A DNA stretch of 64,000 nucleotides from Escherichia coli (GTDB taxonomy: Bacteria; Pseudomonadota; Gammaproteobacteria; Enterobacterales; Enterobacteriaceae), in the NCBI RefSeq assembly GCF_003991155.1, contig NZ_CP031294.1. One strand, written 5' to 3'. Positions 1,199-63,904 of the stretch are shown piece after piece. The position numbers were made by a program, and so were the translations under genes. A model generated the notes under the pieces. It did not search any database, was not told where the DNA came from, and saw nothing but the letters and a program-made list of their open reading frames with translations. Numbering within the stretch: position 1 is the first letter of the stretch; every line of letters starts with the position of its first letter.

Positions 1199-1249
1199 TA
1201 GTATCAATCCTTTAATTCATATATTGGGCGTAACAAACGCCCAATATAA

Positions 1250-41165: not shown

Positions 41166-41193
41166 TTAAGGCCACCAGCATTGGTGGCCTTAA
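41166..41193. terminator. hairpin TTAAGGCCACCAGCATTGGTGGCCTTAA (copy 1)
   Basis: Perfect 11-bp stem. A near-identical copy with an inverted loop is at 41637. Confidence 0.5.
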
Positions 41194-50837: not shown

Positions 50838-52396
50838 ATGAAAATGACAAGTATTCAACAACGTGCAGAGCTTCATCGCCAGATCTGGCAAATTGCTAAC
50901 GATGTCAGGGGTTCAGTCGATGGATGGGATTTTAAGCAGTACGTTTTGGGCGCGCTTTTTTACCGTTTTATCAGCGAAAATTTTTCCAGTTATATTGAAG
51001 CCGGTGATGACAGTATCTGTTATGCGAAACTGGATGACAGCGTAATTACTGATGACATTAAAGACGATGCCATCAAAACTAAAGGCTACTTCATCTACCC
51101 CAGTCAGCTTTTCTGCAACGTAGCTGCGAAAGCAAATACTAATGACAGACTGAATGCAGATTTAAACAGCATCTTCGTTGCTATCGAAAGTTCTGCTTAC
51201 GGTTATCCTTCAGAAGCTGACATCAAAGGTTTGTTTGCTGATTTCGATACCACCAGTAACCGCCTGGGTAACACCGTTAAAGATAAAAATGCCCGCTTGG
51301 CTGCGGTTCTGAAAGGGGTTGAAGGGCTAAAACTTGGTGACTTCCATGAACATCAGATTGACCTGTTCGGTGACGCCTATGAGTTCCTGATTTCTAACTA
51401 TGCGGCGAATGCCGGTAAGTCCGGCGGCGAGTTCTTTACACCGCAGCACGTCTCTAAGCTGATTGCACAACTGGCTATGCACGGGCAGACCCACGTTAAC
51501 AAAATCTACGACCCGGCAGCAGGCTCCGGTTCGCTGTTGTTGCAGGCGAAAAAACAGTTTGATGACCATATCATCGAAGAAGGTTTTTTTGGTCAGGAAA
51601 TCAACCATACGACCTATAACCTGGCGCGTATGAACATGTTTTTGCACAACATCAACTACGACAAGTTTGATATCAAGCTGGGTAATACACTGACTGAGCC
51701 GCACTTCAGAGATGAAAAACCGTTTGATGCCATCGTTTCTAACCCGCCGTATTCGGTGAAATGGATTGGCAGCGATGACCCGACGCTGATTAACGATGAA
51801 CGTTTTGCCCCGGCTGGCGTTCTGGCCCCCAAATCCAAAGCTGACTTTGCGTTTGTATTACATGCGCTGAACTATCTTTCGGCCAAAGGTCGCGCTGCGA
51901 TTGTCTGCTTCCCAGGCATTTTTTACCGTGGCGGCGCGGAGCAGAAAATCCGTCAGTATCTGGTCGACAATAACTATGTCGAAACCGTGATTTCACTGGC
52001 ACCGAATCTGTTCTTTGGCACCACTATTGCCGTCAATATTCTGGTGCTGTCTAAACATAAAACGGATACCAAAGTTCAGTTTATTGATGCCAGCGAACTG
52101 TTCAAAAAAGAGACTAACAACAACATTCTGACCGATGCTCATATCGAACAGATTATGCAGGTATTTGCCAGCAAGGAAGATGTTGCTCATCTGGCGAAAT
52201 CTGTTGCGTTTGAGACTGTTGTCGCGAATGACTATAACCTGTCGGTGAGCAGCTATGTGGAAGCGAAAGATACTCGCGAAATTATCGATATCGCTGAGCT
52301 GAATGCTGAGCTGAAAACCACGGTCAGCAAAATCGACCAGTTGCGTAAAGATATTGATGCGATTGTTGCTGAGATTGAAGGTAGCGAGGTACAGGC

Positions 52397-52400
<4 letters not shown>
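50838..52400 (+). CDS. hsdM: type I restriction-modification methyltransferase subunit HsdM (type IC, EcoR124-family)
   Basis: [25 protein letters not shown]... An AdoMet-binding region and a catalytic SNPPYSVKW (NPPY) motif are present. The stop overlaps the hsdS start. Confidence 0.9.
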
Positions 52401-53656
<1,256 letters not shown>

Positions 53657-53777
53657 TTGACCATTGCTACCGACCGGATCACCTTAACATCCGGTCTATA
53701 TAGAGACTATTTTTTACACGCCGGAAGTCGCCCTTAAAGCCCTTCCGGCCCTTGCCAGACGGCACAAAGGATGCGCT

Positions 53778-56700
53778 ATGACTCATCAGACACACACCAT
53801 TGCTGAATCCAATAACTTTATCGTTCTTGATAAGTACATCAAAGCCGAGCAAACAGGCGACAGCTACCAGAGCGAATCGGACCTGGAACGTGAACTGATT
53901 CAGGATCTGCGGAATCAGGGCTATGAATTTATTTCCGTAAAATCTCAGTCGGCGATGCTGGCCAACGTTCGGGAACAGCTTCAGAGCCTCAATGGTGTGA
54001 TGTTTAATGACAGCGAGTGGCGGCGCTTCACGGAGCAGTATCTGGACAACCCCAGCGATGGTATTCTGGATAAAACCCGTAAAATCCATATCGACTATAT
54101 CTGCGACTTTATTTTTGACGACGGGCGACTTGAGAACATCTATTTGATAGATAAAAAGAATCTCATGCGCAATAAGGTGCAGATTATCCAGCAGTTTGAA
54201 CAGACGGGTTCTCATGCTAACCGTTATGACGTCACGATCCTGGTTAATGGTTTACCGCTGGTGCAAATCGAACTAAAAAAACGCGGGGTGGCGATTCGTG
54301 AGGCTTTCAACCAGATACATCGTTACAGTAAAGAGAGTTTTAACAGCGAAAATTCCCTGTTTAAGTATCTGCAACTGTTTGTCATTTCTAACGGCACCGA
54401 TACCCGTTATTTTGCCAACACGACAAAGCGCGATAAAAACAGTTTTGACTTCACCATGAATTGGGCGAAATCAGACAACACGCTGATTAAAGACCTCAAA
54501 GACTTTACCGCTACCTTTTTCCAGAAACATACTCTGCTGAATGTTCTGGTGAACTACAGCGTTTTTGACAGTAGTCAGACGCTACTGGTGATGCGACCGT
54601 ACCAGATTGCCGCCACCGAGCGCATTCTGTGGAAAATTAAGAGTTCCTTTACAGCGAAGAACTGGTCAAAACCGGAAAGCGGTGGGTATATCTGGCATAC
54701 TACCGGTTCTGGTAAAACCCTCACCAGCTTTAAAGCCGCGCGTCTGGCAACAGAGCTGGACTTTATTGATAAAGTCTTCTTTGTGGTCGACAGGAAAGAC
54801 CTCGATTACCAGACCATGAAGGAATATCAGCGTTTTTCGCCAGACAGCGTCAACGGCTCGGAAAATACCGCAGGCCTTAAACGAAATCTGGATAAGGACG
54901 ATAACAAAATTATCGTCACTACTATTCAGAAACTCAATAACCTGATGAAAGCAGAAAGCGACCTGCCTGTATATAATCAGCAAGTGGTGTTTATATTTGA
55001 TGAATGCCACCGCAGCCAGTTTGGAGAAGCGCAGAAAAACCTGAAGAAGAAATTCAAACGCTATTATCAGTTTGGTTTTACCGGCACCCCTATTTTCCCG
55101 GAAAACGCTTTAGGCTCAGAAACGACCGCCAGCGTATTTGGTCGTGAATTGCATTCGTATGTAATTACCGATGCGATTCGTGATGAAAAAGTGCTCAAAT
55201 TCAAGGTGGACTACAACGATGTGCGGCCACAGTTTAAATCTTTAGAGACAGAAACCGACGAGAAAAAACTGAGTGCGGCTGAAAATCAGCAGGCATTTCT
55301 TCATCCCATGCGTATACAGGAAATTACGCAATATATTCTGAATAACTTCCGCCAGAAGACCCACCGTACTTTCCCAGGTTCCAAAGGCTTTAATGCCATG
55401 CTGGCAGTGAGTAGCGTGGATGCCGCGAAAGCCTATTACGCGACGTTTAAACGGTTACAAGAGGAAGCAGCTAATAAATCGGCTACCTATAAACCGCTGC
55501 GTGTTGCAACAATCTTCTCCTTTGCCGCCAATGAAGAACAAAATGCCATTGGTGAAATTTCCGATGAAACTTTTGATACCAGCGCAATGGACAGCAGTGC
55601 TAAAGAGTTTCTTGACGCTGCAATTCGTGAGTATAACAGCTATTTTAAAACTAACTTCAGCACCGACAGTAACGGTTTTCAGAACTACTATCGTGATTTA
55701 GCCCAACGGGTTAAAAATCAGGATATCGATCTGTTAATTGTCGTTGGGATGTTTTTAACCGGCTTCGACGCTCCAACATTGAACACGCTATTCGTCGATA
55801 AAAACTTGCGTTTTCACGGCCTGATGCAGGCATTCTCCCGTACCAACCGCATTTATGACGCTACTAAAACCTTCGGTAACATCGTCACTTTTCGGGATCT
55901 GGAACGCTCAACCATTGATGCCATAACGCTGTTTGGTGATAAAAATACTAAAAATGTGGTGTTAGAAAAGAGTTATGCTGAGTATATGGAAGGCTTTACA
56001 GATGCTGCCACTGGTGAAGCTAAACGCGGCTTTATGGCAGTAGTTTCAGAACTGGAACAACGGTTCCCTGACCCTGCCAGTATTGAAAGTGAAAAACAGA
56101 AGAAAGACTTCGTAAAACTGTTTGGTGAATACCTGCGTGCCGAGAACATCCTGCAAAACTATGATGAATTTGCCACGCTGAAAGCCCTGCAACAAATCGA
56201 TCTTAGCGATCCTGTTGCGGTAGAAAAATTCAAAGCAGAACATTATGTGGATGATGAAAAGTTCGCTGAATTGCAAACAATTCGTCTCCCTGCTGAACGC
56301 AAGATTCAGGATTATCGTTCTGCCTATAACGATATTCGCGACTGGCAGCGCCGTGAGAAAGAAGCTGAGAAAAAAGAGAAATCAACCACTGACTGGGATG
56401 ACGTAGTTTTTGAGGTCGATTTGCTGAAGTCTCAGGAAATAAACCTGGATTATATCCTTGGACTGATTTTCGAACACAACAGACAAAATAAAGGCAAGGG
56501 CGAAATGATCGAAGAGGTCAAACGCTTAATTCGTTCAAGCCTGGGGAACCGGGCGAAAGAGGGCCTGGTGGTCGATTTTATTCAGCAAACGAACCTGGAT
56601 GATTTACCAGACAAAGCCAGTATCATTGAGGCATTCTTTACGTTTGCTCAACGCGAACAGCAACGTGAAGCAGAAGCATTGATAAAAGAAGAAAATCTCA

Positions 56701-56894
56701 ATGAAGAGGCGGCGAAACGCTATATTCGCACGTCTTTAAAACGCGAATACGCCACCGAAAATGGCACAGAATTAAACGAGACATTACCAAAACTTAGTCC
56801 GTTAAACCCGCAATATAAAACGAAAAAACAGACCGTTTTCCAGAAAATCGTCACGTTTATTGAAAAGTTCAAAGGAGTAGGTGGGCAGATATAG
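53778..56894 (+). CDS. hsdR: type I restriction enzyme endonuclease/translocase subunit HsdR
   Basis: The 1038-aa product has an SF2 helicase Walker A …TGSGKT…, a DEAH/DECH-like …[16 protein letters not shown]… and helicase C-terminal motifs. It lies 122 bp after hsdS. Confidence 0.9.
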
Positions 56895-56952
56895 TGTATT
56901 AATCTGAACCAGATCTGGCAGACATCTGTGCAAATTGCAGATAGCTGTCAGA

Positions 56953-57363
56953 TCAAACCATCGTAGGGATGTTTGTATCCACTTTGAACTCAGGTACACC
57001 AACGAACTCTTTAACCTTCATCTGGTAGCCGGTTCTGTCAGTTTTGATGACTTCCTGTTTGCCCTCTATAAACTGCTCACGCCACTCGTCGCGACGGGAA
57101 GCTGGCATGATCAGCAAAACGTTAGTCATATCCGTGACCTTCCTCCAGTACTCGGCCCAAATATTCTGTTTCACCCATTCCAGATCGACTTTATCCAGCC
57201 AAGCTCGATTCAAACGTGAGCGTTCTTCATCTGGTCGATGGTTTAGTCTCAGCAGGCGATTAATCATGTTGTGGCGTTCGTCGCCATAAACGAAGTCGTG
57301 TACCTGATACATGAAGGCGATCTCTTTCTCGCACTCGGCCACGATTTCGTGGATGACATTCAT
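56953..57363 (-). CDS. hypothetical protein (136 aa) convergent with hsdR
   Basis: The product begins MNVIHEIVAECEKEIAFMYQVH... A heptamer tandem repeat abuts its RBS and a 16-bp perfect inverted repeat lies upstream. Confidence 0.5.
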   Translation of the reverse strand: MNVIHEIVAECEKEIAFMYQVHDFVYGDERHNMINRLLRLNHRPDEERSRLNRAWLDKVDLEWVKQNIWAEYWRKVTDMTNVLLIMPASRRDEWREQFIEGKQEVIKTDRTGYQMKVKEFVGVPEFKVDTNIPTMV

Positions 57364-57371
57364 TTCCTGCC

Positions 57372-57399
57372 GATAGTCGATAGTCGATAGTCGATAGCA
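57372..57399. repeat. heptanucleotide tandem repeat (GATAGTC) x3.5, 9 bp upstream of the ATG at 57363
   Basis: Read directly: ccgatagtcgatagtcgatagtcgatagc. Confidence 0.85.
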
Positions 57400-57442
57400 G
57401 CGTTTGAGTTGGGATCGTCGATGATGGAAAGGGCTGTATTCA

Positions 57443-57485
57443 TAATAGCACCATTAAGAAGTGATTTGTTTAATGGTGCTATTAT
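57443..57485. promoter_or_regulatory. 16-bp perfect inverted repeat ATAATAGCACCATTAA-N11-TTAATGGTGCTATTAT
   Basis: Read directly. It lies about 80 to 120 bp upstream of the 136-aa gene. Confidence 0.6.
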
Positions 57486-57546
57486 TTCAAAAATGAAAAG
57501 GTACTAAATAGAAATAAACAGGCAATCCTTCAAATAAAGGCATTGG

Positions 57547-58218
57547 CTAATCATACTTGGAGGTATTTATCACCAGAATTTTGTTTGTATAAATCTTCTT
57601 AATATCCCATGTGACATTACCGGAATACCATTGACCGTTATATACTTGGTTTCCAGTTGCACCTGTCATTGTTACATAGACAGGTCTGTCGTAATCGGTT
57701 CGTCTATAGTTATATACTCCAACCATAGCAGGCATTACCGCACATGGATACCCCATATCTATTGTAAATTGAGGGTCAGAAATAGTGATAAGTTTCGCAT
57801 CAAGGGGCATCATCTCACCGTGATACACCATTGCGCCTGCGCTGTTATACATGGCAATGCCATAGCCAGAATGTGGTAACACCATATCAGAAAAAGCATA
57901 AACTGTTATTGTTCCGGGGCTACCATTTACCTGATGCAATCTGAGAGCATTGTATCCGTTACTATGTTCATGAATAAACATCATGTTCGCCTTATTACTG
58001 CTTTTTATGAAAAAAAAACATGATTTGTTTGATGGGATTGATGTTTGAAAAACAGAACCTTTAGATGTAGACATTGTCCCTTTATTAATCAGATTTTGCG
58101 GAGTAAATTCAGGACTCATCCACAAACTTCCATCTGATTGAGTAATTGACATCCCGAACATAATTATCCCCAGTATGTGTATATGTAAGAACCAAGCCCC
58201 GTATATAAATTTGACCAA
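57547..58218 (-). CDS. Gly/Tyr/Asn-rich protein (223 aa). Possibly the distal part of a frameshifted gene that continues from 58164-58445.
   Basis: Composition is beta-rich and fibre or lectin-like (…TGATGNQVYNGQWYSGNVTW…). It overlaps the upstream ORF by 55 nt in a different frame. Confidence 0.35.
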   Translation of the reverse strand: MVKFIYGAWFLHIHILGIIMFGMSITQSDGSLWMSPEFTPQNLINKGTMSTSKGSVFQTSIPSNKSCFFFIKSSNKANMMFIHEHSNGYNALRLHQVNGSPGTITVYAFSDMVLPHSGYGIAMYNSAGAMVYHGEMMPLDAKLITISDPQFTIDMGYPCAVMPAMVGVYNYRRTDYDRPVYVTMTGATGNQVYNGQWYSGNVTWDIKKIYTNKILVINTSKYD

Positions 58219-58445
58219 CTAACCGTATTTCCATTAATAGTAACATTTGGAACAGGTAAATTGATGTAGTTGTCGTTGTTAAGAGGCATTAATGACCACA
58301 CGGCATGTAGTGATTTACCCGGTGGCGGATTAGAGTACGTCTTAGAGCCTGATGACGCCGTAAATCGATCAAGAAAAAAAATAGGTGTAAGGAAGCCAGT
58401 AACGTTAATTCCTTTATTGTTGTAAATCCCTGTACCGTATGCCAT
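58164..58445 (-). CDS. Gly/Tyr/Asn-rich ORF (93 aa), possible proximal part of the same disrupted gene
   Basis: MAYGTGIYNNKGINVTGFLTPIFF...GLGSYIYTYWG. Composition is similar to the downstream ORF. Confidence 0.3.
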   Translation of the reverse strand: MAYGTGIYNNKGINVTGFLTPIFFLDRFTASSGSKTYSNPPPGKSLHAVWSLMPLNNDNYINLPVPNVTINGNTVSWSNLYTGLGSYIYTYWG

Positions 58446-58499
58446 TTTTCACCCTTGTTTTTATCAACACAATATGGCCGATCATGCGGCCATATCAGA

Positions 58500-59069
58500 T
58501 CAATTAGAGCTTTGAAAGACTTTGTGTGGTTGTGTTGCGAGGTTATGTCGATGGCTTAACTCACGCATCATGTCTTCAAGGCGACTCTTTGTGTCGTCGA
58601 GTTGGTCGGCCATTGCTCCCAAAAGCTGACGAACGGCCATAGGATCATCGCTGTTTAGTGATGGCATTTTATAACCCGCCTGAGAAGACATAAGATTGAA
58701 CGCAGACATCAACATCGTTAGAGAGGATTTAAGCCCAGCAATTTCACGATCTTTGCTGGCAATAATCGTCTCACTCTTGTTAGTGTCATCAGTTCGTTGA
58801 GTCTCGCTCACCATATCCAAAGTCGCCTGCAACTTATCAGCGCGCTCTTTTTCAGCAAGATAATGAACACCGAAATGATGTGCTAAAGCTACAACCTGAG
58901 TTGGCTCTTCAAAGGTGGACTCAAAATTAAGTGCTGTAACCACTCTCTCAAATATGGAAACGTCTTCTATTCCTCGAAGAATGGCTAACATTTTGACCAG
59001 TTCATTAGCATCCATTTCTTCGAATAAGGCGTTTTGTTCATCAGCTATCGCTTTGCATTTCTTGCACAT
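58500..59069 (-). CDS. hypothetical acidic protein (189 aa)
   Basis: The operator AAACAAGTTGTTT-TCTTATTGG-CTTTATTGTGA lies 20 bp upstream of the start. Confidence 0.5.
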   Translation of the reverse strand: MCKKCKAIADEQNALFEEMDANELVKMLAILRGIEDVSIFERVVTALNFESTFEEPTQVVALAHHFGVHYLAEKERADKLQATLDMVSETQRTDDTNKSETIIASKDREIAGLKSSLTMLMSAFNLMSSQAGYKMPSLNSDDPMAVRQLLGAMADQLDDTKSRLEDMMRELSHRHNLATQPHKVFQSSN

Positions 59070-59087
59070 GTGTTTTTCCTAATTCTT

Positions 59088-59125
59088 AAACAAGTTGTTT
59101 TCTTATTGGCTTTATTGTGATGTGG
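59088..59125. promoter_or_regulatory. operator element copy (AAACAAGTTGTTTTCTTATTGGCTTTATTGTGATG)
   Basis: Same family as the copies at 41011, 43150, 43633 and 46268. Confidence 0.5.
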
Positions 59126-59366
59126 CATAAAAGGGGAGCAAGCTAAACGTAAAGGTGCAAACTCTCTATTTCGGTCAACGAAACACAAGGGCCATTTGGC
59201 CCTTGTTATTAACACGTTGCTTTACGGACTAGCGGATAAGCGAAGTAGATCGCCAGACCAATGAGGACGCCATCAGAAATGACAGACATCATCTTTCCCG
59301 TAAAATCCACCAACACCGCCATCACCAGAAGAGCAATGACGATCACAAGCCGGAATCTCTCAAGCA

Positions 59367-59792
59367 TTAGAGATAAGCATCCAGTGACAACTGAAGCGCC
59401 TGGGCGATCTTTTTCAGTGCCTGCTCTTCTTGTTCACCAATGCCATCCTGATCGGCAATATCAAGGCACAGACACAGAACATCGACCGCCTCTGGAGTAC
59501 CCGCAATATCAGACAGCTCACGAATAGCCTGTGCATTAGCAGAACGAGGGGACGCTTCGTAACGAGCACGGATATTGGCGCTCATTTGGGCAATTTCACC
59601 AGCAAACGGAGAAAACGCAGGCAGAGCTGCAATTGTCTTCTCAAGAATGGCAATTTCTTTTGCGTCACATGTGCCGTCGGCATAGGAGATCATGTACGCG
59701 CCCCACACGGTGGCCTCAACCGCATCACGGTTCTCCATTTTTTTGACTTCGATAACTGCTTTACGAGTTTTCTTTTTGAAGAAACCTAACAT
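59367..59792 (-). CDS. TerB-like (tellurite-resistance TerB / DjlA N-terminal type) domain protein
   Basis: The 141-aa product has a helical acidic repeat pattern …AYMISYADGTCDAKEIAILEKTIAAL… and …VLCLCLDIADQDGIGEQEEQALKKIAQALQL…, consistent with the TerB fold. The call is from memory. An operator lies upstream at 59817. Confidence 0.4.
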   Translation of the reverse strand: MLGFFKKKTRKAVIEVKKMENRDAVEATVWGAYMISYADGTCDAKEIAILEKTIAALPAFSPFAGEIAQMSANIRARYEASPRSANAQAIRELSDIAGTPEAVDVLCLCLDIADQDGIGEQEEQALKKIAQALQLSLDAYL

Positions 59793-59816
59793 GTGTTTTC
59801 CTTTTGTTATTTGTCA

Positions 59817-59850
59817 AAACAAGTTGTTTTATAGTTTCATAAATTGCTTA
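59817..59850. promoter_or_regulatory. operator element copy (AAACAAGTTGTTTTATAGTTTCATAAATTGC)
   Basis: The palindrome AAACAAGTTGTTT lies 25 bp upstream of the ATG at 59792. Confidence 0.45.
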
Positions 59851-59885
59851 CGCAAAGATGGTCAATGCATATGCACTAACAGCCG

Positions 59886-60074
59886 TCAGAAATAACCAAG
59901 TACCGAACCGACTGGAAAAACAAAAATCCCAACTACACGAGCCAAGGTCATGCCAGCCTGAAACTGGAGATCGCCAGAGCAAACAAGTTTTATAATGTTC
60001 GATACCCAACCGGCGGCCATGAGGGCAAGAATTGCCAGCCAAATTTTTCCAAAGTGATTTGAAAACCAGTTCAT
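59886..60074 (-). CDS. small two-TM membrane protein (62 aa)
   Basis: MNWFSNHFGKIWLAILALMAAGWVSNIIKLV...VVGIFVFPVGSVLGYF. ATGA overlap with the upstream ORF. Confidence 0.35.
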   Translation of the reverse strand: MNWFSNHFGKIWLAILALMAAGWVSNIIKLVCSGDLQFQAGMTLARVVGIFVFPVGSVLGYF

Positions 60075-60322
60075 ACAACCGCCTTAGTCACAGCATGATC
60101 CTGAGTAACCGGATGAACTTGAGGTATCGCATCCACCGTCATCCCATCCAGAGTGACAGGACGCTCTACTGGAGTGGTGGTAATTGTCGTCGACGGAGGT
60201 GTGGTGATGGATGAACCCGGCATCAAAAGGCTCTGGCCGGCTGGAACGGCTACCGTCGCCAGTGAAACTATAATGAGAACGTAGGCCATTGGTTTCAGCC
60301 TCTTTCTTTGAAAATTTTCCAT
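60071..60322 (-). CDS. small protein with an N-terminal TM/signal-like helix and a Thr/Pro-rich region (83 aa). It lies in the alternative frame of the 60084-60578 ORF.
   Basis: MENFQRKRLKPMAYVLIIVSLATVAVPAG...TTPPSTTITTTP... Confidence 0.3.
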   Translation of the reverse strand: MENFQRKRLKPMAYVLIIVSLATVAVPAGQSLLMPGSSITTPPSTTITTTPVERPVTLDGMTVDAIPQVHPVTQDHAVTKAVV

Positions 60323-60578
60323 TCGAACTGTCCTTGTTGTTTTTCTCCTTCACTAAAGGCCGTGTACTTTTCGCTTCGCGTGAAGAACCAGAGGCAACAA
60401 TCGCCCCCACGTTCGCAACAACTGACGCTTGATTATCTAAACGTTCATTCAGCAACCGAACGGTAGTCTCTAGTTCATCAAGACGTGACATAACACGACC
60501 GCTAAACAATTCGGCCAAAATTTGACGTAAAGAACGAGGACGTTTAGTTGCAGAAGTGAAATAGGTTTGACGTGCCAT
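60084..60578 (-). CDS. ORF whose N-terminal about 85 aa look genuine (charged coiled-coil MARQTYFTSATKRPRSLRQILAELFSGRVMSRLDELETTVRLLNERLDNQ). The distal part overlaps the 60071-60322 ORF and is low-complexity.
   Basis: Two overlapping frames are open. Which one is translated downstream of about 60330 cannot be decided from sequence alone. Confidence 0.3.
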   Translation of the reverse strand: MARQTYFTSATKRPRSLRQILAELFSGRVMSRLDELETTVRLLNERLDNQASVVANVGAIVASGSSREAKSTRPLVKEKNNKDSSNGKFSKKEAETNGLRSHYSFTGDGSRSSRPEPFDAGFIHHHTSVDDNYHHSSRASCHSGWDDGGCDTSSSSGYSGSCCD

Positions 60579-60723
60579 GTGGACTCCATCCAGTGTCAGA
60601 AAGAGTTGCGGCTGGCGATTGCCAGCCGCCTTTCTCGTTCCATCCTGGAACTGTGTCTTACCGACACATTGTCATCCTGACGCTGATAAGATACATGATT
60701 TAAAATGATAGGTAAACACTTAC

Positions 60724-61368
60724 TTACCACTTGTTATAAACAAAACCAATATCTTTCTTGTGAGGCATATCTGCTGCTGAAAAAGCTGCGATCTTCGCGA
60801 GTCGATCACATATTTCATTTTCACGATGCCCGGCGTGACCTTTAACCCACTTCCAGCGAACATTATGTCGACTTGCGGCCTCATCCAGACGTTTCCACAG
60901 ATCAACATTCTTTACCGGTTTTTTATCAGAAGTCATCCATCCATTACGTTTCCACCATTTCATCCACTGTGTCATGCCGTTTTTCAGATACTGGCTATCA
61001 GAGTACAAAATAACGTTGCATGGATATTTCAAACGCTCCAGCCCGATAAGTGCGCCCATCATCTCCATGCGGTTATTGGTGGTGCTATGAAAACCATCTG
61101 AGAACTCGCGTTCCTCACCACGATACTGGAGAACGATACCGTAACCGCCCGGGCCACCCGGATTTTTAAGGCAAGAGCCATCACTAAAGATTTTCACGGT
61201 TTTGAGCTGGGGATTGAACTCTACGACAGGCGTTGTGGGATTGGTGCGGGGAGAATTTTTGTTTTTGGCTTTTTTGCGAGTTTTTGCTTGCGATCGGGCT
61301 GGTGTCTTCGTCGTCATATAAACTCCTGAATCAAGCGCCGCGCCGATTTTTTCCTCGCGCGTGCGCAC
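60724..61368 (-). CDS. RNase HI homologue with a 45-aa basic N-terminal extension
   Basis: …[25 protein letters not shown]…[16 protein letters not shown]…[23 protein letters not shown]…[17 protein letters not shown] aligns residue-by-residue with E. coli RnhA catalytic motifs (the catalytic Asp/Glu/Asp/Asp positions are present). Confidence 0.8.
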
Positions 61369-61439
61369 ACGCGTGCGTGTTAATAATTATTAAAATAAAC
61401 AAATTACTTCCCAGAACAGGTTTTTTATAAACCTGAACT

Positions 61440-61890
61440 GAACGAACGAAGTGAGTGAAGTTCACCTCGAACGAAGTGAGAGGTTGTCTTTTCAGGTAAT
61501 ACTCTCCCAGGGAGGTGAGTATAAAATTCCTCACCAACCTGGTCGTTTCATAACCTGAAAAGCTATGGTCTAAGTCTACTGCCAGCTTAGACTTGGGAAG
61601 TTATGGATGACAGCACCCCAGAACCGAGATCTTCCCACACTTTATGAAGGGGAGTACTGGATTCAACCTCTCGAAACACCCCAGACTCGACAATCATAAA
61701 GTGACCCTTGTCTCTGCTCACTTTGGTTCCCCCTTCCCCGACACCTAAACGGCACCGGTTCTACGCTGGTAGTGAGCTTTTTTAAACCTGACGCCAGTGA
61801 CGCTTACCCCCACCCATCAGGTCGAGTCTCCAGTCTACGACTGGAAACTATCAGATCTTAGCACTTACAATTCACTTTATGAATAGTTTG
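61440..61890. other. about 450-bp non-coding region with direct repeats (CGAACGAAGTGAG x2) and several short inverted repeats. No ORF.
   Basis: The repeats are aacctgaactgaaCGAACGAAGTGAGtgaagttcacctCGAACGAAGTGAGaggttgtc..., ctcccagggaggtgag...ctcacc and ctacgctggtag plus a T-run. No tRNA-like T-arm was recognised. Confidence 0.4.
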
Positions 61891-61900
61891 TACTTATCTA

Positions 61901-62155
61901 TCATTTCGATTGATTATTTTTTCGACCATGTAGTTGAACATTCAAGGCAAACACCTCGTTGATCAACTCACCTAAAAGCTGTTCAACAAGTTCGCGATGC
62001 TCCCCAAGATGCAAGCACTTAATTGCCCATTCGTACAAGTTGAAAGCCTGCTCACGATCTTTCATCATTTCACGAGCCTGGGCCAGAAAATCGCTCTCTA
62101 CGAGCGCAACGACATTAGTCGGATATGACATGTTGGTTTCCTTAAAGTGGTTCAT
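61901..62155 (-). CDS. hypothetical small protein (84 aa)
   Basis: ORF only. Confidence 0.35.
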   Translation of the reverse strand: MNHFKETNMSYPTNVVALVESDFLAQAREMMKDREQAFNLYEWAIKCLHLGEHRELVEQLLGELINEVFALNVQLHGRKNNQSK

Positions 62156-62317
62156 AAAATCGATTTTAAAGCGTCTGGGAAGGGGTTCTAGTGGATTCTG
62201 TAGTGGTGTTCAGGTCTGGGAGTCTCTGATATAAAACAGCCTGCTTCCGTATATTAATAATTAATATGTAGTTATTTATATATACAGAAGCAGGCTAATT
62301 ACAGACGCCAGAACAAA

Positions 62318-62911
62318 CTAAGCAGCCTTCTTTGATGGTCTTTTTTTCCTGATCACATTCGCAGGATCATACCCTCCCAGACTTTTCATGACGTCCAAAG
62401 GGATCTTGCTTATAGAGTGCCCAGCGTCCTGACAGAATCCTCGAAAAACAACGAGCATACTGCCACCGGGGTTGATGTTTACTTCTACCTGACCCAAATT
62501 GACGTCAGGCTCGACAAACGCTACGCGGCCACCAGACAGAATAATCGTCTCATTCGCACACTCTGTTGCACGCTCATACCACTTTGTATCGAGGGATTGA
62601 GGAATTAGCATCACTGTTGTAACTCCGCGAGCCTGCTCACGTATAGCCGCATCAATCCAGGGGGAGATTTTGGAGTAGGGTGGATTGAGGAAGGCAATTG
62701 TACCTGGCTGTCCCCATTCAGATTTCAAAGCATCACGCTCAACGCCTATGAAATTAGGCAGCTTCGCATTGTCCTTGTTGCAGGCAACGTCAACATCAAA
62801 TGTCACTCCAAGATAACGTTGAATGGCAGAAAACAGCCAGTCAGGTGTTCTCCAGAGGTCACGAAGAGAGTTGTCGCGCTTTCGCTGTTTGATTTTTTCG
62901 GCTGCAATCAT
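62318..62911 (-). CDS. phage-type DNA N6-adenine methyltransferase (Dam family)
   Basis: The 197-aa product carries the catalytic motif IAFLNPPYS (NPPY) in the arrangement typical of small phage Dam methyltransferases. N-terminal …WRTPDWLFSAIQRYLG… motif. Confidence 0.75.
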   Translation of the reverse strand: MIAAEKIKQRKRDNSLRDLWRTPDWLFSAIQRYLGVTFDVDVACNKDNAKLPNFIGVERDALKSEWGQPGTIAFLNPPYSKISPWIDAAIREQARGVTTVMLIPQSLDTKWYERATECANETIILSGGRVAFVEPDVNLGQVEVNINPGGSMLVVFRGFCQDAGHSISKIPLDVMKSLGGYDPANVIRKKRPSKKAA

Positions 62912-62922
62912 CTTCTTTCTCG

Positions 62923-62942
62923 ATAGGTAAGTGATTACCTAT
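62923..62942. promoter_or_regulatory. perfect palindrome ATAGGTAAGTGATTACCTAT, 12 bp upstream of the methyltransferase start
   Basis: Read directly. It belongs to the second palindrome family (see findings). Confidence 0.55.
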
Positions 62943-63094
62943 TTTTGCATTTGATTTTATGTCTGACAATCAAATAAAACGCGCCAGAAATGCAAACGAG
63001 AAGCTCTCTGGCGCGTTTTTGTGGTGCTGGATATGTGATTGGCTTACCCAGCACTATAAAGCTCTCTATGGGCTTTATTTTCAGTAGGGGGACG

Positions 63095-63904
63095 TCATCC
63101 AATAGTGTACTCCGCTACAAACTTCTTAACGATCGGTGATTCTTCGTTCAATGTTAGATTTCCACCGTCTCTAACGGCAATTCCTGTCGCTGGAAATACA
63201 GCCATCATTTGCCCAGCCTGAGTTGACGCAGTGTTAAGCGGATACGGTTTTTCTGGATTGCTCATTAAAGCAATCTTAATACTATTACTTGTAGCCTTCT
63301 TTTCTGTGAGAAGGTGTCTCATGGAAATTACCGTGTAAACACTAATATCTGGACCTCCGCTAAACCAATTAAGAAGGTTTAATATCTTATCCTTTGCTTT
63401 GACAGGCGCGTTTTCGTAAGCGTCTAAGAAAATATCTGTTTCTAAGCCTGCTTTATTGAAAAACGAATCATCTTTATCACTTAAAGTAAAACGAGGACCT
63501 CTTGCAGTACGCGCTTTTTTATTTGTGTTGCTATCATTTGACTGTTGAACTTTTAATTCATCATTAACATCAACACACTCTTCAACCTCAATCAATCCCA
63601 ATTGTTCTGGCTCGTTTTCGGCAGATTCAACACTTTCAGCGTTAATTACGTTTATAGGCTCATGCGCTAACTCCAACTCATTTAAAGCAGAGCTGAAATC
63701 ACCTGCTTTTTCTTCATTGAACAGTTCTTCGGCAACATCATCAGAACTCATGGCTACGCCAGCATCGAGGCCGAGCAGCAGATCGTCAATATCATCAGTA
63801 TTTTCAACCTGTGCGGCTTTTTTTACTGGCTCATCAAGTGATTGCAACATGGCTGTCAGCTCGTCCAGATCATCATTTGCCATTACATTTTCAACCGAAC
63901 TCAT
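63095..63904 (-). CDS. hypothetical highly acidic protein (269 aa)
   Basis: The N-terminal 130 aa are about 35% Asp/Glu (…DDLDELTAMLQSLDEPVKK…ENTDDIDDLLLGLD…). The C-terminal half is neutral. Confidence 0.5.
   Translation of the reverse strand: MSSVENVMANDDLDELTAMLQSLDEPVKKAAQVENTDDIDDLLLGLDAGVAMSSDDVAEELFNEEKAGDFSSALNELELAHEPINVINAESVESAENEPEQLGLIEVEECVDVNDELKVQQSNDSNTNKKARTARGPRFTLSDKDDSFFNKAGLETDIFLDAYENAPVKAKDKILNLLNWFSGGPDISVYTVISMRHLLTEKKATSNSIKIALMSNPEKPYPLNTASTQAGQMMAVFPATGIAVRDGGNLTLNEESPIVKKFVAEYTIG

Follow-up and report, generated by a model that had tools for sequence, protein, structure and literature searches.

The 136-aa open reading frame (ORF) that lies beside hsdR in the 64,000-nucleotide stretch of Escherichia coli DNA analyzed here (the window) is a gene remnant, comprising the N-terminal quarter of a 561-aa DNA methyltransferase whose catalytic domain is gone. 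Taken as a whole, the locus is probably a fossil, the 5′ end of what was an orphan DNA adenine-methyltransferase gene in a phage-plasmid of the SSU5 family; an hsdMSR cassette has truncated it, and a heptanucleotide array slips within its old coding sequence (CDS). The cassette, of the EcoR124 type (type IC), took the place of the 3′ three-quarters of the methyltransferase gene, leaving behind its upstream region, a putative start-codon-occluding hairpin, the native start codon, and ~150 codons. The array would have been born from a 13-nt proto-repeat, with slipped-strand mispairing adding or removing 7-nt steps that each shift the reading frame. The features on which this reading is based are listed in Table 1.

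Table 1. Features of the methyltransferase remnant and its surroundings (window coordinates).
Feature	Position	Strand	Description
hsdM-hsdS-hsdR, type IC (EcoR124 family) cassette	50838..56894	+	Occupies the former place of several genes downstream and of the methyltransferase gene's 3′ three-quarters
hsdR-remnant junction	56895..56982		Close homology to full-length methyltransferase alleles ends at ~56982
136-aa ORF, ATG start	56953..57363	-	Residues 23 to ~150 of the 561-aa DUF4942/PHROG 6263 DNA methyltransferase, plus a short diverged tail
Native start ATG (57443-57441) and 27-codon frame	57360..57443	-	Ends at TGA 57362-57360 with 3.86 repeat units
Heptanucleotide array CGATAGT (CTATCGA on the coding strand), 3.86 copies	57371..57397	-	Codons ~17-26 of the native CDS
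Perfect 16-bp inverted repeat, 12-nt loop	57442..57485 (arms 57442-57457 and 57470-57485)	-	From the repeat finder
Candidate extended -10 element TGAAATAAT (TGnNATAAT)	57481..57489	-	Overlaps the 5′ arm of the inverted repeat; column conservation only

The region is 100% identical to the E. coli plasmid pGF66.1-B, and more than 200 E. coli plasmids of ~110 kb match it and carry metG, apbC, nrdAB, thyA, and dfrA51. Salmonella phage SSU5, in which the gene is annotated as a DNA methyltransferase, and related Escherichia and Klebsiella phages carry the same DUF4942 gene. These matches identify the window as an SSU5-family E. coli phage-plasmid. The restriction-modification (R-M) genes next to the remnant form a genuine type IC system: HsdR matches the EcoR124 HsdR subunit (PDB 2W00) over its full length (residues 1-1038, 2273 bits), while the conserved regions of HsdS match the EcoR124II S subunit and its TAEL repeat is present three times in the window.

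An earlier note, made from the sequence of this DNA, had placed the ORF convergent on hsdR, which holds with a gap of 58 nt rather than 59 bp, and had called its product unrecognizable, which does not hold. Sister plasmids that lack the hsd cassette (pRM9131-1, p4_0.2, and pPK8276-110kb) have, after the same upstream genes, a 1686-nt gene annotated as encoding a DUF4942 domain-containing protein, which begins 80 or 66 nt, depending on the repeat number, 5′ of the ATG at 57363. The 561-aa product of this gene matches PHROG 6263, "DNA methyltransferase", from end to end (E = 1e-299), and the window ORF corresponds to its residues 23 to ~150 with 97% identity. In the full protein, the Pfam domain DUF4942 spans residues 140-295, and a C-terminal methyltransferase region at approximately residues 395-525 contains the motifs LEPQAGRGDL and IVMNPPY and matches methyltransferase models from PADLOC. 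The only match in a PDB sequence search with the full-length protein was a weak one to M.TaqI (E = 0.1), which covers the methyltransferase motifs, and a literature search on DUF4942 found no functional study of the family. The window gene is cut at approximately residue 150 of 561, and both the S-adenosylmethionine (SAM)-binding motif (motif I, xExxxGxG) and the NPPY motif (motif IV) are absent from it. It contains neither a complete DUF4942 domain, for which it scores 13.8 bits against the 25-bit Pfam cutoff, nor the C-terminal methyltransferase fold. The earlier note had mentioned that the ORF might prove to be the C-terminal fragment of a disrupted larger gene; it is indeed a fragment of one, but from the N-terminal end.

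Comparison with pPK8276-110kb, which shares 99.92% identity with window positions 56982-63520, locates the truncation directly: leftward of 56982, that plasmid continues into the remainder of the gene and the window into hsdR. From 56953 to 56982 only a diverged trace of the gene is left, reading EFKVDTNIPTMV and then a stop in the window versus EFKAETVIPTML... or EFKAETVIPTMLNLL... in full-length alleles. The same junction between hsdR and the remnant is present in 52 complete E. coli plasmids. Searching with the 136-aa ORF gave no family-level match in Pfam, NCBIfam, or PADLOC, and a protein homologue search with it returned short fragments and chimeras and no full-length proteins. These fragments and chimeras show that the gene has frequently been broken.

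The native start codon of the gene is not the ATG at 57363 but the one 80 nt upstream, at 57443. In all of ~85 further loci compared, which were drawn from IMG/VR, GTDB genomes, and an E. coli collection, the ORF opens at this upstream ATG. The 22 residues that it adds (M-N/S-T-A-L-S-I/V...I-D-Y-R-Q-E) form a peptide that is preserved in elements from Escherichia, Klebsiella, Salmonella, and Kluyvera, with variation at third codon positions (GAC/GAT, TAT/TAC, and CGG/CGT/CGA). This conservation of the peptide, with synonymous changes 5′ of Met23, identifies 57443 as the native start and places the heptamer inside the CDS. The earlier note had instead started the gene at 57363, so that the heptamer would form a 5′-UTR spacer tuning the geometry between promoter and ribosome-binding site (RBS), with the palindrome as an operator. 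An AGGA just 5′ of ATG 57363, the calling of the 136-aa ORF by PGAP in out-of-frame alleles, and the overlap of the palindrome with the candidate -10 element are all in keeping with that model. However, with only 2 nt between them, the AGGA and the ATG are poorly spaced, and the stretch from the palindrome to ATG 57363 has evolved in the manner of a coding sequence. Moreover, Met23 is replaced by Leu in the most divergent homologue (L068), and PGAP itself selects the long ORF whenever the array is in frame. The spacer model is therefore extremely improbable, and the description of the repeat as lying "at its RBS" was an interpretation that fails once the native start is identified.

The array that the earlier note had noticed is real, and it is perfect, with 3.86 copies rather than 3.5 and a distance of 7 nt rather than 9 from ATG 57363. 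Tandem Repeats Finder (TRF) reports it with a period of 7, 3.9 copies, and 100% matches. No other perfect tandem repeat with a period of 4-12 and at least 3.5 copies occurs in the 64-kb window, and 100 first-order Markov simulations gave a mean of 0.09 such repeats per window. The array is an expansion of a 13-nt proto-repeat, CTATCGACTATCG, formed by the codons GCT ATC GAC TAT CGN, which encode A-I-D-Y-R. Lineages that use the synonymous codons TAC or GAT have neither the proto-repeat nor its expansion. The locus is a clean natural example of a microsatellite born from ordinary codons.

The earlier note had proposed a survey of repeat number across isolates, and this shows that the number is not fixed (Table 2). 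PLSDB contributed one additional 2.86-copy allele. A scan of IMG/VR for arrays of at least 2.86 units returned 17 loci, of which only two are in this gene, one of them (L067) in an independent lineage with different flanks; the others are unrelated intergenic arrays. A metagenome scan for arrays of at least 2.86 units beside a gene-specific flank gave no matches. In an alignment of 27,163 nt, plasmid pEC17CM6_2 and the window are separated by three mismatches and two gaps, one being a single 7-nt unit of the array (57371-57377) and the other a 12-nt unit in hsdS (52949-52960). The heptamer is thus a hypermutable simple-sequence repeat that is polymorphic between otherwise near-identical plasmids. 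Among the expanded alleles, GF66.1 (3.86 copies) and EC17CM6 (2.86 copies) have no mismatches in their flanks, YPE3 (6.86 copies) and MB53 (2.86 copies) have five, and three 2.86-copy alleles, by contrast, differ at 29-56 flank positions. Copy number does not track flank similarity, which points to several independent slippage events.

Table 2. Copy number of the heptanucleotide array in complete E. coli records and its consequence for the frame read from the native ATG.
Copies	Records	Examples	Product from the native ATG
1.86 (or interrupted proto-repeat)	~200		158 aa (truncated type) or 561 aa, at 1.86 copies
2.86	3	EC17CM6, OW849379, MB53	Stop after 58 codons
3.86 (window)	5	GF66.1, MB30, elppa10, CUPF06, PK8276	Stop after 27 codons
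4.86	2	88COLEC, M21170	In frame, 165 aa; called by PGAP as a "DNA modification methylase" pseudogene
6.86	1	YPE3	Stop after 34 codons

Changes in copy number have direct consequences for the reading frame (Table 2). The stop codon reached with both 3.86 and 6.86 units is the TGA that overlaps the ATG at 57363-57361 as ATGA. Because the native frame is out of register with 3.86 units, the 136-aa ORF of the window would be made only by internal initiation or by termination-reinitiation, and the ATGA overlap could allow the latter at ATG 57363. The earlier note had likened the arrangement to a contingency locus. The likeness extends to a repeat unit that is not a multiple of three, located inside the 5′ CDS, and to copy-number differences between near-identical plasmids that exceed the point-mutation background. 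It does not extend to an intact functional gene with a switched product, as the gene in the window is truncated and lacks its catalytic domain.

In the window, the repeat would vary by slippage that is selectively neutral, the gene being dead. Of the 52 records with the hsd junction, in which the gene is truncated, 10 have an expanded array, compared with 1 of ~158 others (Fisher p = 4e-6, uncorrected for shared ancestry). All of the expanded E. coli alleles share a single 5′ allele, and the enrichment in truncated copies is therefore partly a lineage effect. The gene is also broken in other ways: one truncated copy has a nonsense codon (L098), an otherwise full-length copy has a premature stop that leaves a 332-aa ORF (L081), and further copies have internal deletions or are chimeras in which only the first ~68 residues are kept, fused to unrelated sequence. 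Another copy (L087) has an insertion, probably of an IS element, at approximately codon 154, the end of which looks IS629-like. The concentration of expansions in truncated copies, together with this other breakage, fits relaxed constraint and neutral slippage.

Several observations go against a dead gene. First, most truncated copies keep an intact in-frame 158-aa ORF together with the upstream hairpin and the candidate promoter, and an N-terminal fragment may thus be expressed. Second, the cut falls near the start of the DUF4942 envelope, so that the first ~140 residues might constitute a complete separate domain, although an AlphaFold2 model of the 158-aa remnant built from a 16-sequence alignment was too poor to define one (mean pLDDT 49.9, pTM 0.25). 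Third, PK8276 and the IMG/VR contig L067 have full-length genes that are intact apart from an out-of-frame expanded array, which also fits a working ON/OFF switch. In full-length alleles, the heptamer would then be a true translational phase-variation switch of the methyltransferase, and the window would have inherited its array after truncation. Such a switch could have three states, with full-length protein at 1.86, 4.86, and further units in the same register, an N-terminally shortened protein produced through reinitiation at the ATGA at 3.86 and 6.86 units, and no protein at 2.86 and 5.86 units. The two full-length expanded genes come from independent lineages (3.86 units in PK8276, which is L004, and 2.86 in L067), with the frameshift as their sole lesion and with the 539-aa ORF from Met23 intact in both. 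The recurrent change of the array and the stop/start overlap in the +14 frame are also consistent with switching. However, ~95% of alleles have 1.86 units or fewer, which is not a slippage-prone tract, none of the alleles surveyed is a full-length gene with an expanded in-frame array of 4.86 or 7.86 units, and expansion was found in only one of the ~158 non-truncated E. coli records. On balance we regard a switch as rather unlikely.

The switch does have a direct mechanistic precedent in neuO, the gene for the E. coli K1 capsule O-acetyltransferase in prophage CUS-3, which has been described as a "mobile contingency locus" (PMC13001214). The 5′ CDS of neuO contains 3-53 heptanucleotide units, and the gene is ON only when their number is divisible by three; approximately two-thirds of the arrays are OFF (PMC13001214). 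In both loci, a gene that a phage brought to E. coli has heptanucleotide units repeated within its 5′ CDS, slipped-strand mispairing shifts the frame, and one of three registers gives the full-length product. In neuO, however, the arrays are long and differ in length in nearly all strains, the gene is intact, and switching has been measured, whereas the array described here has 2-7 units, is expanded in ~5% of elements, and belongs in most cases to a truncated remnant that is catalytically dead. Neither the repeat unit, CTATCGA, nor the protein is related to its counterpart in neuO. The mechanism class is thus already known from neuO, and the present locus adds a minor new case to a familiar kind of mutable site. 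A further reading, which we consider improbable, is that SSU5-family E. coli phage-plasmids may be in the course of evolving a mobile phase-variable orphan methyltransferase, with the three states described above and control by the start-codon hairpin, of which the window preserves a fossil copy. Reinitiation at the ATGA would in that case yield a form 22 residues shorter, and the hairpin would provide a second layer of translational control. Should the array also switch the intact methyltransferase of sister plasmids, E. coli would have in it a rare case of an epigenetic switch that is driven by a repeat and carried on a mobile element.

Preservation of the fragment raises the alternative that it works as a small protein in its own right. 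According to this explanation, the truncated fragment (158 aa in frame, or 136 aa from Met23) would act, for example, as a modulator of the type IC system or of host restriction and be phase-varied by the repeat, much as the earlier note had suggested an anti-restriction, restriction-alleviation, or R-M regulatory function. Most of the 52 plasmids with the junction, among them several diverged upstream lineages, keep the remnant intact; phage databases list it as a family of its own (phrog_16000, 158 aa); and it lies directly beside hsdR. Against a functional small protein, searches of Pfam, NCBIfam, and PADLOC revealed no similarity to anti-restriction, controller, or defense families, and the 136-aa ORF was not assigned to the ArdA, KlcA/ArdB, Ocr, Ral/Lar, or C-protein families in these resources. 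Signs of decay are the nonsense codon in L098 and the loss of frame through the array in 8 of the 10 junction records with an expansion. The position next to hsdR is accounted for by the insertion of the cassette itself, and the elements that keep only the first ~68 residues point to a recombination boundary rather than a conserved small gene. A functional small protein is accordingly very unlikely, and the remnant probably has no role in the adjacent R-M system or in the control of restriction. The "hypothetical protein" beside hsdR in the common ~110 kb E. coli phage-plasmids should be annotated as a methyltransferase gene stump and not as an R-M accessory factor.

Upstream of the array, the perfect 16-bp inverted repeat noticed earlier is real and unique in the window, with a loop of 12 nt and not 11. 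None of 100 simulations gave a 16-bp inverted repeat with a loop of at most 20 nt. On the coding strand, its 3′ arm contains a Shine-Dalgarno-like GGTG (57452-57449) and the A and U of the native AUG. As RNA, the window sequence is predicted to fold into a hairpin of -19.5 kcal/mol (z = -7.5). In other lineages the two arms change together, from A-U to U-A, G-C to A-U, and C-G to A-U, and the U-G wobbles that occur there are pairs only in RNA of the coding strand. A 14-bp stem with a predicted energy of -14.7 kcal/mol is retained in the most divergent homologue. Across homologues, 79.7% of alignment cells are paired and three pairs have changed on both sides, a level of covariation reached by 11-13 of 500 shuffles. 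The earlier view of the palindrome as a strong operator or hairpin candidate survives as a conserved hairpin candidate, but the hairpin is strong in only five of eight lineages and in the other three the stem is no better than in shuffled sequence. RNAalifold did not recover the helix from 29 distinct upstream regions, and Rfam gave no family for the hairpin, only sub-threshold chance matches. The structure was also considered as an intrinsic (Rho-independent) terminator and rejected, having no U tract and an A+U-rich stem followed by GAAUACAG on the coding strand; a terminator scan made no call.

Among the 29 distinct homologous upstream regions, the TG, A-11, and T-7 of the candidate extended -10 element either do not vary or are conserved at 90% or more. 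A generic scan for sigma-70 -35 and -10 elements between 56850 and 58300 found no promoter on the minus strand. If the candidate element is real, transcripts starting from it would lack the 5′ arm of the inverted repeat, and the hairpin would block translation of read-through transcripts only. The most economical reading of the inverted repeat is a hairpin that damps translation of the methyltransferase gene, or else an operator of that gene, inherited by the stump; as a hairpin, it would normally restrain synthesis of the methyltransferase. A translation-inhibitory stem-loop, opened by the Com protein, is found on mom, the DNA-modification gene of phage Mu. The candidate hairpin described here would resemble it in that a phage gene for DNA modification has its start codon and its Shine-Dalgarno element sequestered. 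It differs in that no Com-like activator has been identified here and in the restriction of strong hairpins to five of the eight lineages.

The presence of a simple-sequence repeat inside the frame of a DNA methyltransferase also recalls the phase-variable methyltransferases of phasevarions, Type III mod and Type I hsd genes with such repeats (PMC4525171, PMC7383803), and full-length alleles of the present gene would similarly switch methylation ON or OFF. The known cases are chromosomal mod, hsdM, and hsdS genes that are associated with R-M systems in host-adapted pathogens and contain long tracts of tetra- or pentanucleotides. In contrast, the locus in the window belongs to an orphan gamma-class-like methyltransferase on a phage-plasmid, has a very short heptamer tract, and has lost its methyltransferase domain.

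A second repeat lies in the neighboring cassette, which is of the same family as EcoR124I and EcoR124II, two enzymes in which a change of specificity is brought about by a 12-bp TAEL repeat in hsdS (reviewed in PMC3874165). The hsdS repeat has two or three units among near-identical plasmids and changes alongside the heptamer. The heptamer, which is out of frame, can only create or destroy a reading frame, whereas the TAEL repeat stays in frame and alters the length of the target spacer. The rapid change in length of the heptamer array stands out, as it and the hsdS repeat account for the only indels between plasmids that are three SNPs apart in 27 kb.

The DUF4942 methyltransferase gene, of which the remnant ORF is the N-terminal stump, is inactivated by several independent routes, represented by the homologous loci L087, L098, and L081. 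In L087, the gene is interrupted by an insertion after codon ~154 (about 1960-2063), the end of which resembles the left end of IS629, an IS3-family element, and the contig carrying L097 ends at the same place in the gene. L098 is a truncated copy with a TGA nonsense codon at codon position 116, while a premature stop in the otherwise full-length copy at L081 leaves an ORF of 332 aa. Chimeric or deleted forms are also found among the homologous proteins (P0024-P0028, P0007, and P0009). In the chimeras, which are carried by plasmids of Klebsiella variicola and others, only the first ~68 residues of the methyltransferase are retained and are followed by unrelated sequence. Other variants have an internal deletion that joins the N terminus directly to the NPPY region, or lack 18 residues. 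Cassette exchange appears to have used the 5′ end of the gene repeatedly as a recombination boundary.

The heptamer (CGATAGT / ATAGTCG) that forms the array inside the old methyltransferase coding sequence is also arrayed intergenically, in 3 to 10 units, in unrelated phage contigs from IMG/VR (L011-L014, L016, and L018-L027). These arrays are often preceded by a hairpin and a TCATAGT motif, with degenerate AGTCG copies around them. Their unit number varies between related contigs, with 7.3 units in L021 versus 4.3 in L023, and 10.3 in L011 versus 5.3 in L020. These intergenic arrays could represent iterons or some other class of polymorphic repeat.

The remnant ORF contains a terminator-like hairpin on the hsdR strand that could end hsdR transcripts. 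Elsewhere in the window lie three further perfect inverted repeats, each with 12-13-nt arms and a loop no longer than 20 nt, versus a chance expectation of ~0.1.

Coordinates of repeats, hairpins, and neighboring genes
Feature	Location	Strand	Remarks
Intergenic heptamer array	L023 770-800		Example
Intergenic heptamer array	L021 6099-6139		Example
12-bp ACCGCTGAGCTT (TAEL) repeat in hsdS	window 52952-52987		3 units
Terminator-like hairpin	window 57022-57041	+	Followed by TTTTGATGAC
Two moron-type genes upstream of remnant	window 57547-58445	-	PHROG match
rnhA (RNase HI)	window about 60724-61384	-	
Perfect inverted repeat	window 62976-63019		
Perfect inverted repeat	window 1220-1248		
Perfect inverted repeat	window 41166-41193		

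The number of TAEL units in hsdS is three in the window and in elppa10, versus two in pGF66.1-B and pEC17CM6_2, both near-identical to the window, and in MB30 and MB53. Because a change in unit number is the classic EcoR124I/II switch, which gives the recognition sequence a spacer of different length (PMC3874165), sister plasmids with two and three units should differ in R-M specificity.

Upstream of the remnant lie two genes with matches to the PHROG moron families phrog_425 and phrog_557, for membrane-associated and outer-membrane proteins, and PGAP annotates the first as 'hypothetical' or 'cysteine peptidase family C39 domain-containing'. Both are missing from p4_0.2-type plasmids, in which the methyltransferase gene is still accompanied by the hairpin of the 16-bp inverted repeat. 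Annotations of pGF66.1-B, the identical plasmid, and of several relatives list rnhA as a frameshifted pseudogene; in pRM9131-1, p4_0.2, and MB30 the gene is intact.
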